The position numbers and the translations under genes are program-made. From positions 22,058 to 86,057 of the forward strand of contig UQBJ01000003.1 in NCBI GenBank assembly GCA_900539255.1: a stretch of 64,000 nucleotides of DNA, read 5' to 3'. The DNA comes from an uncultured Campylobacter sp. (GTDB taxonomy: Bacteria; Campylobacterota; Campylobacteria; Campylobacterales; Campylobacteraceae). This document shows, one piece after another, positions 20,770 to 57,775 of this stretch. The notes beneath the pieces are model-generated. The model saw only the letters and a list, made by a program, of their open reading frames with translations. It made no database searches and was not told the origin of the DNA. Each line of letters opens with the position of its first letter. The stretch's first letter is position 1.

Positions 20770-22038
20770 ATGTTTCAAAGCAAGACTTATGAAATCAGCT
20801 CCACAGACGACATAGAACTTGGCATAAGGCGTTACTCAAAGCTCGAATTTAAGGTGAGTTTTGATGATACAAAGCCGATGAAAGCCTTGTTTGTCTTTAT
20901 CAACGGCATTAGAGATGAGGATTATGCGGGCTATGAGGAACATTTGGCTGAATTTGTGGTGCAAACTTATGGCGTGGCAGTGCTTCGAGTAGATTATCAC
21001 TGCATAGGCTTTCGCCCGCAAACGGGGGCGACTTTTTATATGGACAAAAGAGACAAGGAAATTTTCAAGGCACAATGCAGCGAAATCGCTCAGCATTGCG
21101 ACATAGAGCTGAATTTGCCCGATGACTTGTCAAATGATGAAAATTTAGGGCAAAATGAAAGCTACGCCCTTTTAACCAGCCTTAACGACATTATTTTAGA
21201 GCTTAAAAACGCCCACAAAATTCCACAAGACTACCGCTCGCCGCTATCCATAAGTTTGCAGCCTACCAAAAACGAGTATCAAAACTTTGGACTTATGCAA
21301 GCCCTTGACATAATCAACGCCATTTATTTTGTGCGAAAGCACCACGCTGAATTTAAGCTCGCTAAAACGCCCAAAACCTTGCTCTTTGGCACTTCGCACG
21401 GAGGCTATCTTGGCTTTTTGTGCGCTAAATTTGCTCCGTGGCTCATAGATGCAGTAGTGGAAAATTCAGGCTATGCAAATGCGCCGTTGAGATTTTTGGG
21501 CTTTGGCAAGGAATTTGATTATAAGGCTTGCTTTGAAAGCAGCACGGCAAGTATGTTTGACCATCTTGCCATCTTTGTCTTTACCAAAACCTTTTTCACA
21601 AGCGTTCAAAGCTCGCCAAAGTGCTACACCGAAGCGCACGACAAAATCCGCTCTTTGCCAGAACTCGACCACCTGCAAACGCAAGCTGCTTGCCACAAAG
21701 CCGTTTTCGTGTCTTACCACAGCGCAAGAGACTTTGACATAGCCCGCCCAGAGCCAAAACAAAGGCTTTATCAAATGCTTGCTAAACTTGACTTTGACGC
21801 CACTTTGCACTTGATAAAAGATGAAGGCGAAGTTGATGGCAAATTCATCAAAAATTTAAAGCACGGAATGGATATGTCCTTAAAAACGCTCATCAAAAAA
21901 GAGCTGCCGCCCTTGCTTGCCCGAAAATTCACACATAAAAAGAGTGAGAAACACGAAATCACCTACAAAAGCGAGAATTTAGAGTATAAATTCAAAGAAA
22001 AGGCTGATAGCATCGAGCTTGTCATCAAAAAACTCTAA
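20770..22038 (+). CDS. Alpha/beta-hydrolase-fold protein of a Campylobacter-restricted family (DUF2920 / Cj0617-Cj1305-like, by recollection)
   Basis: 422 aa with a GxSxG nucleophile elbow (LLFGTSHGGYLG). The N-terminus YEISSTDDIELGIRRYSKLEFKV resembles motility-accessory '617 family' proteins. Accessory context immediately after pnp. Confidence 0.45.
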   Translation: MFQSKTYEISSTDDIELGIRRYSKLEFKVSFDDTKPMKALFVFINGIRDEDYAGYEEHLAEFVVQTYGVAVLRVDYHCIGFRPQTGATFYMDKRDKEIFKAQCSEIAQHCDIELNLPDDLSNDENLGQNESYALLTSLNDIILELKNAHKIPQDYRSPLSISLQPTKNEYQNFGLMQALDIINAIYFVRKHHAEFKLAKTPKTLLFGTSHGGYLGFLCAKFAPWLIDAVVENSGYANAPLRFLGFGKEFDYKACFESSTASMFDHLAIFVFTKTFFTSVQSSPKCYTEAHDKIRSLPELDHLQTQAACHKAVFVSYHSARDFDIARPEPKQRLYQMLAKLDFDATLHLIKDEGEVDGKFIKNLKHGMDMSLKTLIKKELPPLLARKFTHKKSEKHEITYKSENLEYKFKEKADSIELVIKKL

Positions 22039-22051
22039 ATTTCAAGCGAAA

Positions 22052-22210
22052 TTTGTGCTTTGCAAATTTTAAATAAAATTTTTGCTTTATAAATTTAAAG
22101 TGAAAATTTTGCTTTACAAATTCAAAGTGGAATTTGTGCTTTGTAAATTTAAAGTGGAATTTATGCTTTATAAATTTTTAGGGAAAATTTGTGTTTGTGT
22201 AAATTTAAAG
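22052..22210. repeat. Degenerate tandem repeat, ~27-bp unit tgctttayaaatttaaagtggaattt x ~6
   Basis: Direct reading. The repeat translates into a spurious ORF at 22082-22273. Confidence 0.8.
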
Positions 22211-22231: not shown

Positions 22232-22325
22232 CTTGTCATACTGAGCTTTCGCAAGAAAGCGAAGTATCCATAATTTTAAAGTGTTTTGAATTCTGTGGAT
22301 TTTTCGCTACGCTCAAAATGACAAA
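22232..22325 (+). repeat. Dispersed imperfect-palindrome element, copy A
   Basis: TTGTCATACTGAGC-[ctttc gcaa gaaag mini-hairpin]-GCGAAGTATCCA ...~25 nt... TGTGGATTTTTCGC-tac-GCTCAAAATGACAA. The two arms are near reverse complements. The same element occurs at ~31142, ~43508 and ~57607. Confidence 0.8.
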
Positions 22326-31020: not shown

Positions 31021-31245
31021 GCTTCGTCATTGCGAGCGAGTTTTGCAAGCGTAATTTAAATGCAAATTCAGTTCTATGGATTGCCACGCTTTGCTTTCGC
31101 AAAGCTCGCAATGACAAAACCCTTGTCATACTAACTTGCGTCTTGTCATACTGAGCGCAGCGAAGTATCCATAAATTCAAAGTATATCTTAAATACTTCT
31201 TTGTGGATTTTTCGCTTTCTAGTGAAAGCTCAAAATGACAAAAAT
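31021..31245 (+). repeat. Dispersed imperfect-palindrome element, locus B (divergent copy 31024-31118, half-site 31121-31141, full copy 31142-31241)
   Basis: Full copy: TTGTCATACTGAGCG-ca-GCGAAGTATCCATAA ... TTGTGGATTTTTCGC-[ctttc tagt gaaag]-GCTCAAAATGACAA. An upstream variant reads GTCATTGCGAGCGAG...GCTCGCAATGACAAAA. It lies between convergent ispH and aroB. Confidence 0.8.
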
Positions 31246-57566: not shown

Positions 57567-57775
57567 CTTGTCATACTTCGCTATTTTTGTCATACTTTGT
57601 TATTTCTTGTCATACTGAGCGTGAGCGAAGTATCCACAAATTTAAAGCGTGCCTTAAAATTCTTTGGATTTTTCGCTACGCTCAAAATGACAACGATTTG
57701 TTTGCCATACCGATAGTGTGATAAGTATCCATTTTGCTTTGCCATACTGAGCGTGTGCTAAGTATCCGCGAAGTT
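57567..57775 (+). repeat. Dispersed imperfect-palindrome element, locus D (three TTGTCATACT half-starts, full copy 57607-57692, two further left-arm-like units)
   Basis: Full copy: TTGTCATACTGAGCG-tga-GCGAAGTATCCACAAA...TTTGGATTTTTCGC-tac-GCTCAAAATGACAA. Flanking units: TTGCCATAC...AAGTATCCA and TGCCATACTGAGCG-tgt-GCtAAGTATCC. Confidence 0.8.

Follow-up and report, generated by a model that had tools for sequence, protein, structure and literature searches.

Paired hairpin repeats at four intergenic loci of an uncultured Campylobacter, probable sites for an SsnA-type single-stranded DNA nuclease

Four intergenic loci in a 64,000-nt stretch of DNA from an uncultured Campylobacter sp. (the whole stretch analysed, hereafter the window) carry imperfect palindromes built alike from two arms, which raises the question of what kind of element they are and what acts on them. 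A preliminary description made from the letters had read each palindrome as one long bipartite hairpin, and had proposed a REP/BIME, a MITE or a structured sRNA. We found that each arm of such a doublet is a self-contained hairpin repeat of about 27-45 nt. Our explanation, to which as a whole we give a probability of roughly 0.8, is that the loci are paired hairpin repeats of the type of CGTC-tagged REPs and Ssn-related motifs (SRM), and are sites for an SsnA-type nuclease of single-stranded DNA (ssDNA). The kinship of the unit with CGTC-tagged REPs and SRM is very likely; that an Ssn-site mechanism operates in this organism, which we argue by analogy, is the better bet by a smaller distance.

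The repeating unit at the four loci

Rereading the sequence at positions 22232-22325, 31021-31245, 43468-43640 and 57567-57775 (loci A to D), we recovered the two-part architecture as it had been described, with all four loci lying between long ORFs and with a different arrangement of the flanking genes each time (co-directional on the plus strand, convergent, co-directional on the minus strand, divergent). The left-arm 14-mer TTGTCATACTGAGC is present in the window in 4 exact copies, each on the plus strand; allowing up to 3 mismatches yielded 20 matches, compared with 4.6 +/- 1.9 in shuffled sequences, and a count of 20 was reached in 0 of 100 shuffles. For the right-arm 14-mer GCTCAAAATGACAA we found 3 exact and 2 one-mismatch copies, on the plus strand throughout. 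Every conserved position is intact in the eight main units. Loci B, C and D are composite and also hold a TGC doublet type, extra single units and head-only fragments, and several of the additional copies are degenerate (Table 1). The apex is extended in the left arm at locus A and in the right arm at locus B. Tails are CCA at loci A, B and D and CTC at locus C; we considered the change from CCA to CTC (TGG to GAG) as a compensation between arms and rejected it, CTC being the majority tail in other phyla.

Table 1. Units, fragments and spacer of the hairpin repeat in the window, with positions counted from its first letter.
Locus	Feature	Start	End	Strand	Details
A	ACT-type unit	22233	22270	+	TTGTC head; AT-ACT-GA-GC; apex extension ctttc-gcaa-gaaag; GC-GA-AGT-AT; CCA tail
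A	Spacer between inward-facing tails	22271	22295		AT-rich; part-similar to the spacers of loci B and D
A	TTT-type unit	22296	22324	-	5' TTGTCATTTTGAGCGTAGCGAAAAATCCA 3'
B	Degenerate TGC-type unit	31025	31055	+	CGTCATTGCGAGCGAG...GCGTAAT; left half of a second doublet
B	TGC-type unit	31077	31117	-	GTCATTGCGAGC-tttgcgaaagcaaa-GCGTGGCAATCCA
B	Head-only fragment	31123	31136	+	TTGTCATACTAACT; 20 nt ahead of the full unit
B	ACT-type unit	31143	31171	+	Minimal apex GC-GCA-GC
B	TTT-type unit	31204	31241	-	Apex extension ctttc-acta-gaaag
	Head fragment within a 749-aa ORF	38752	38765	+	(C)CGTCATTTTGAGC; adjoins a C10 tract
C	Isolated head fragment	43467	43480	-	TTGTCATTTCAAG (minus-strand reading)
C	ACT-type unit	43510	43540	+	CTC tail in place of CCA
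C	TTT-type unit	43553	43590	-	CTC tail
C	Additional degenerate TTT-like unit	43595	43637	-	TTATCATTTTGAGCAAAGTGCGTTAGCACAAAGCGAAAATCCA
D	Two head-only fragments	57568	57600	+	TTGTCATACTTCGC, TTGTCATACTTTGT; period about 20 nt; ahead of the full unit
D	ACT-type unit	57607	57636	+	
D	TTT-type unit	57665	57693	-	
D	Two decayed ACT-like single units	57701	57768	+	TTTGCCATACCGATAGTGTGATAAGTATCCA; TTGCCATACTGAGCGTGTGCTAAGTATCCG

From 5' to 3', the unit consists of a (T/C)GTC head, a stem that opens with A-T and T-A and continues with a triplet N3, G·A and A·G, G-C and C-G up to the apex, and, on the returning side, N3' and the closing A-T, followed by a C(CA) tail. The stem AT + N3 + GA + GC has nine positions, two of which are G·A and not Watson-Crick. 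Neither the GTC head nor the 3' C varies in the alignment of 40 units described below or in any unit of the window; the head is TGTC in 8 of 8 main window units and CGTC in the TGC-type unit at 31025, and CA follows ATC in 698 of 748 units in the lineage loci listed. The left arm reads ...CAT-ACT-GA...GA-AGT-ATC, and the right arm, on its own strand, ...CAT-TTT-GA...GA-AAA-ATC. The replacement of ACT by TTT between the arms, which the preliminary description had noted, is real, and it is mirrored within the same arm (AGT versus AAA), so that each arm is a self-complementary hairpin. The apex is a GC-rich mini-hairpin whose length varies, with clusters at 7-9, 15-18, 21-22, 30 and 39-40 nt. The perfect mini-hairpins that had been placed at junctions between sub-arms do exist, each of them as an extension of its own arm's apex. 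Such modular apices are explained by the report that the loop of the SsnA hairpin can be removed or extended (PMC11893778).

Compensatory base changes, for which a check had been proposed, are present, and they lie within arms. We searched the cross-phylum loci with the pattern GTCAT-N3-GA-(4-44 nt)-GA-N3-ATC, leaving the triplets free, and obtained fully complementary triplets in 291 of 306 units, with 17 triplet-pair types (cross-phylum loci listed). For the covariation analysis we used 40 distinct units from outside the query selection, with the structure ......(((((..((...))..))))).... imposed on them. In this set 95.4% of cells were paired, compared with 21-54% in slid controls, and 46 cells were changed on both sides, compared with 14.5 in shuffles, none of which (0/500) reached the observed value. 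The A-T and T-A stem opening is invariant in 40 of 40 units, and N3 covaries. With the inner dinucleotides left free, GA/GA was found in 274 of 332 units (cross-phylum loci listed), i.e. a conserved tandem G·A/A·G.

Besides full units, we observed head-only fragments, made of TTGTCATACT and about 9-13 unrelated nt, repeated once or twice at intervals of about 20 nt immediately on the 5' side of full ACT units. They occur in the window at loci B and D, at positions 7851-7889 of L023 and around ssnA in L244-L248, and they are present at the orthologous site of a 78%-identical Campylobacter MAG. In the lineage loci listed, a head-only fragment precedes 81 of 396 ACT heads. The fragments score as -35/-10-like pairs. 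They might be scars of a nuclease cutting 5' of the head.

Pairing of units and the conserved fold

In the window, a doublet is an inverted pair of units whose tails face each other across a spacer of 16-36 nt, with the ACT type on one strand and the TTT type on the opposite strand. Pairs in the cross-phylum loci listed comprised 77 tails-in, 38 heads-in and 28 tandem arrangements. ACT was paired with ACT in only 2 of the 77 tails-in pairs, its partners being TCT, TTT, GCT or CCT, and the ACT+TTT doublet recurs in Helicobacter, Bacteroidales and Mucispirillum with unrelated spacers. Because the partner triplets differ, a stem between the arms is systematically broken precisely where covariation within arms is found. 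The apical extensions of the two arms of one doublet vary independently.

Whole doublets were predicted to fold as RNA into the long hairpin as their minimum free energy (MFE) structure (-32 to -36 kcal/mol, z -5.5 to -7.4). As DNA, nearest-neighbour calculation gave -18 to -23 kcal/mol for whole doublets, compared with -1.6 to -8.4 kcal/mol for single units, so that thermodynamics would favour the long inter-arm fold if a whole doublet became single-stranded. Minimal units were weak as DNA (-1.6 to -4 kcal/mol, no better than shuffles); the ACT-type unit of locus A alone reached -7.2 kcal/mol (z -3.4) and the TTT-type unit of locus B -8.4 kcal/mol (z -4.1). The folding models for RNA and DNA thus side with the long stem of 14+12 bp in the preliminary description, but it is not the structure that is conserved: the covariation falls within arms, and the evolutionary signal is that of the single-unit hairpin, not of the inter-arm stem.

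The best-surviving alternative, a structured RNA, makes the long stem the functional form: a transcribed doublet would fold as a long bipartite hairpin and act as an sRNA, as a stabiliser of mRNA 3' ends or as a terminator, roles that some REP/BIME elements are reported to have. The fold itself speaks for this, the long hairpin being the MFE structure of every doublet as RNA, and so does the placement of doublets, which in the related loci listed are enriched between convergent (34) and co-directional (33) gene pairs, i.e. at 3' ends, with 13 divergent pairs. Passages of PMC3733652 also argue that many REPs are transcribed. The covariation, however, lies inside the arms, and partner arms differ systematically at the very triplets that covary; the apical extensions are unlike between the arms of one doublet; units that are single, in tandem or heads-in are common; and the orientation to flanking genes is arbitrary, every combination being represented. 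Nor do the elements look like intrinsic terminators, with no T-run after the hairpin and no terminator-like site overlapping them. Scanning against Rfam yielded 0 matches at the gathering thresholds and nothing above noise in an E-value scan (E = 0.88), and ARAGORN reported no tRNA or tmRNA. The characterised binding protein, SsnA, does not bind RNA (PMC11893778). We consider a structured RNA unlikely.

The tandem G·A led us to consider a hammerhead-like or kink-turn-like RNA as well; this was rejected, the core CUGANGA being absent and there being no 3-nt bulge.

The doublets of the window share one orientation, as had been stated (4 of 4, p = 0.125 by chance). As a trait of the family this did not hold: in at least 118 related loci the strands are mixed, with 22 same-strand and 11 opposite-strand cases among neighbouring doublets more than 400 bp apart, and mixed at several kb. 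A bias of orientation with the replication strand was rejected, orientations being mixed in related loci.

At the site orthologous to locus C (window 43510-43590) in a 78-80%-identical Campylobacter MAG (L023 7891-7954), the tails-in doublet is ACT+TCT and not ACT+TTT. This is either an old site in which the partner unit was replaced or a hot spot of insertion.

Distribution and linkage to a GIY-YIG nuclease gene

We scanned a sequence collection with the left arm (24 specified bases), yielding at least 112 stretches, so that the family extends well beyond the four copies of the window, as had been anticipated. The exact 24-base unit occurs in more than 10 phyla. The matches listed include Latescibacterota, Ignavibacteria, Bacteroidales, Clostridia, Gastranaerophilales, several Helicobacter species, Campylobacter MAGs, C. 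troglodytis, cyanobacteria, Mucispirillum, Anaerolineales, Verrucomicrobiota, Elusimicrobia, Nitrospinales, one Methanomethylophilaceae MAG and two IMG/VR viral contigs. A BLAST search of the doublet against PLSDB plasmids gave no match, and a search of the full-text literature for the arm sequences matched beta-lactamase and vector papers alone. Metagenomes were scanned for the CCA-tailed ACT+TTT doublet, yielding at least 118 loci with a median GC of 0.42. Two of the metagenome loci listed match the window itself at 98% over 5.8 kb and 97% over 3.1 kb, and a GTDB Campylobacter MAG matches it at 78-80% over about 7 kb, in support of its assignment to this genus.

Two exact units lie on the contig binned as a Methanomethylophilaceae archaeon (L031 2441-2466 and 2623-2648), which reflects either a transfer into a gut archaeon or a binning error. 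On the phage contigs, units are found at L003 12104-13252 and 11195-11491 and at L002 4137-4325, some of them inside ORFs or at their ends, where translation gives peptide strings like NRHSEALAEESI and DSSLRSE. Such units probably give rise to spurious or extended ORF calls.

Among the matches listed for the at least 112 cross-phylum loci, the sole protein family that recurs next to the units is a GIY-YIG protein of 94-101 aa. We approached the same association from the protein side with a protein-similarity search, which returned at least 8000 matches, and picked five GIY-YIG loci by protein similarity alone; in three of the five, G·A units lie 7-170 bp away, on both sides in two cases. In the at least 118 metagenome loci, a 95-aa GIY-YIG gene flanked by CCA-tailed ACT/TTT units was found in 4 loci (E about 1e-36). 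As proxies for membership of the Ssn family (CDD cd10448; PMC11893778), the 95-aa protein has a similar length, matches the Pfam GIY-YIG family with E = 1.8e-17 and has its Y8, Y19 and E66 spaced as the catalytic Y6, Y17 and E64 that were mutated in the 94-aa Neisseria SsnA. It shares 52-61% identity with GIY-YIG proteins of other phyla whose genes are linked to G·A units. NCBIfam gave no equivalog for these GIY-YIG proteins and PDB no named relative. A search of the viral contigs with the GIY-YIG profile gave one partial match.

No ssnA or other GIY-YIG gene was found in the 64-kb window, and the link to its lineage was made through contigs of the same or a closely related species in other assemblies. 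Assemblies with contigs 97-98% identical to the window also yield contigs on which ssnA is intact and multi-copy amid identical unit types. In human-gut assemblies we found the identical 95-aa protein in at least five unrelated chromosomal settings: following flgE, between groESL and rpsA, following a TonB-dependent receptor, close to greA/cheW and adjoining hydrogenase genes. Such a spread of settings points to a cassette that is multi-copy or recently mobile. Within 600 bp of the 95-aa gene there are 7.55 units per kb, compared with 0.39 per kb farther away (about 19-fold), and a forward ACT unit often lies about 46 bp ahead of the start codon, with another about 83 bp past the stop.

The loci with the identical 95-aa protein (L243-L258) are gut Campylobacter-like contigs from Hadza, Nepal and other cohorts. 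We compared L131 with L202 in search of an allele empty of ssnA; the locus ends inside the repeat array. In L140, a 131-bp direct duplication (8540-8670 and 9200-9330) comprises the last ssnA codons and the downstream doublet, and resembles what a second cassette, upstream of the intact one, would have left behind.

The lack of ssnA in the window is also what one would expect if the units of this strain were decaying orphan relics, with no cognate nuclease and no present function. Several copies are degenerate (31025-31055, 43595-43637 and 57701-57768), and 19% of SRM-rich genomes have no ssnA (PMC11893778). The eight main units are nevertheless intact at their conserved positions, and the assemblies that share the 97-98%-identical contigs have the intact multi-copy gene, so we regard such decay as quite improbable.

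Relation to known repeat systems and probable function

Passages of PMC3733652 describe CGTC-tagged REPs as having a CGTC or TGTC head, an 8-9-bp stem that opens with complementary A-T residues and a CCA tail, and as forming inverted dimers with 20-100-bp spacers in which heterodimers are frequent. The units studied here have this head, opening, nine-position stem and tail, and they form inverted heterodimers with spacers in the same range, although the arrangement named 'HH' in that paper may differ from our tails-in. They share with the CGTC repeats described in those passages a preference for 3' intergenic positions between convergent or co-directional gene pairs, with occasional intragenic copies. 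The REP option of the preliminary description is thus the one that fits, and the element, which it had not recognised as a known Campylobacter one, has a known anatomy. According to the same passages, Neisseria dRS3 and Rickettsia RPE-4/RPE-6 belong to the CGTC superfamily (Di Nocera et al. 2013), and Sulfurovum is listed as CGTC-positive; Campylobacter and Helicobacter are not among the species named there. The authors concluded that no transposase is dedicated to these repeats, and they reported no other associated enzyme, whereas the units here are linked to GIY-YIG genes. The paper distinguishes four families, and a stem with G·A may already be among them.

The second known system is that of Neisseria, in which the NTS (CGTCATTCCCGCGMAVGCGGGAATCYRG) and SRM flank ssnA, a 94-aa single-domain GIY-YIG gene (Chenal et al. 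2025, PMC11893778). SsnA binds its hairpin solely as ssDNA and on the forward strand only, and cuts a few nt 5' of it; cleavage is governed by the three nt before the palindrome and binding by the C after it, and the system lowers transformation by DNA that bears the NTS (PMC11893778). The units share with NTS and SRM the unpaired GTC head, the A-T/T-A opening, a palindromic hairpin with an extendable loop and the C right after the stem, and they too are oriented, mostly intergenic and present by the hundred. In other phyla and in the window's lineage, though not inside the window, the motif stands on both sides of a single-domain GIY-YIG gene of about 94-95 aa that has the Tyr-Tyr-Glu spacing of SsnA. 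They differ in having tandem G·A/A·G where Neisseria has C-G/G-C pairs, in occurring mainly as ACT+TTT heterodimers and in their Campylobacter host, a genus absent from the main text of PMC11893778. The published SRM pattern, HGTCWYN(0-2)YYVSBRHN(0-5)WNVSBRGN(0-2)RNCYNB (PMC11893778), has 0 matches in the window and fails on 8 of 8 units because the G·A positions fall where S or B is required. It thus under-detects the family, and surveys made with it will pass over a G·A form frequently found in Bacteroidales, Campylobacterota, cyanobacteria and other groups.

A further possibility is a REPIN-type element mobilised by a RAYT or IS200/IS605 Y1 transposase encoded elsewhere in the genome, a partner that had been proposed as worth a search. 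The layout is alike, with two inverted hairpin repeats and a spacer in about 100 bp, high copy number, intergenic placement and a repeat-flanked partner gene in few copies relative to the repeats (PMC3116915), and a resemblance in layout between Ssn and RAYT systems is noted by the authors of PMC11893778. REPINs, however, have a GTAG head and an HUH/Y1 transposase (PMC3116915), whereas the units have a (T/C)GTC head and a recurrent GIY-YIG neighbour among the loci listed; the two enzyme families are unrelated, and the passages of PMC3733652 know of no Y1 transposase flanked by CGTC repeats. A tblastn search with IS200 TnpA gave no match in about 2 Mb of unit-bearing loci, the query being approximate and its sensitivity for RAYT limited. 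We judge a REPIN origin highly improbable.

Least probable of all is a MITE moved by cut-and-paste by a DDE transposase, with TTGTCAT...ATGACAA as terminal inverted repeats: a doublet does end in inverted repeats, and its length of about 90-105 bp is typical of MITEs, but no target-site duplication is visible at the four doublets, the supposed ends do not move as one piece and are found alone, in tandem, heads-in or in any other relative orientation, a 24-nt unit is common to more than 10 phyla with unrelated spacers, and no transposase recurs nearby among the loci listed.

Paired units of the CGTC-REP/SRM type therefore remain our preferred reading, and by analogy with Neisseria they most likely serve as sites that an SsnA-type ssDNA nuclease recognises and cuts in a strand-specific manner. 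A unit in incoming transforming, lagging-strand or otherwise unwound ssDNA would form a small hairpin by itself. A single-domain GIY-YIG nuclease of the SsnA type would bind this hairpin, recognising the unpaired GTC head and the C that follows the stem, and would nick the ssDNA a few nt 5' of the head. With one forward unit on each strand, a doublet would allow either strand to be cut. The expected result is that unit-bearing ssDNA would be trimmed, and transformation and recombination near the sites modulated. Campylobacter is naturally competent, which makes trimming of incoming DNA plausible. The unit-flanked nuclease gene, for its part, may behave as an IS-like cassette, present in multiple copies, by which the repeats are seeded or maintained. 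To our knowledge, Ssn is a nuclease with no strand-transfer activity, and the proliferation of the repeats thus lies outside what Ssn explains.

The kind of element is one already described, and the novelty is modest: a Campylobacter instance, the tandem-G·A form, a multi-copy ssnA cassette and the strictness with which units form heterodimers. It places a previously unannotated repeat of gut Campylobacter in an experimentally characterised system. It also predicts, by analogy, that a 95-aa ssDNA nuclease cuts beside these hairpins and may shape natural transformation in a competent genus. For the ssDNA-cutting tools that have been proposed from Ssn, ACT-type and TTT-type units may provide new specificities.

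We also put forward, tentatively and as a speculation that may well be wrong, a wider reading in which the tandem-G·A unit (GTCAT-N3-GA-[apex]-GA-N3'-ATC) defines a large, so far undelimited branch of Ssn/SRM. In sequence the branch would be nearly the same in more than 10 bacterial phyla, in phage contigs from the gut and perhaps in an archaeon, and the published motif would not detect it. Its obligatory heterodimers might keep the sites of the two strands distinguishable and block perfect cruciforms, its ssnA cassette might still be moving in gut Campylobacter, and the head-only fragments, at about 20% of units, could be nuclease scars.

Two minor features of the window adjoin units or fragments. 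Directly 5' of doublet A, within its intergenic region, 22036-22210 is taken up by 6.4 copies of an AT-rich 27-bp tandem repeat (76% matches). A C10 homopolymer (G10 on the coding strand) lies at 38730-38741, in the N-terminal part of an ORF of 749 aa (36860..39109, minus strand), beside the head fragment listed in Table 1. Phase-variable homopolymer tracts are common in Campylobacter, and this one is a candidate.
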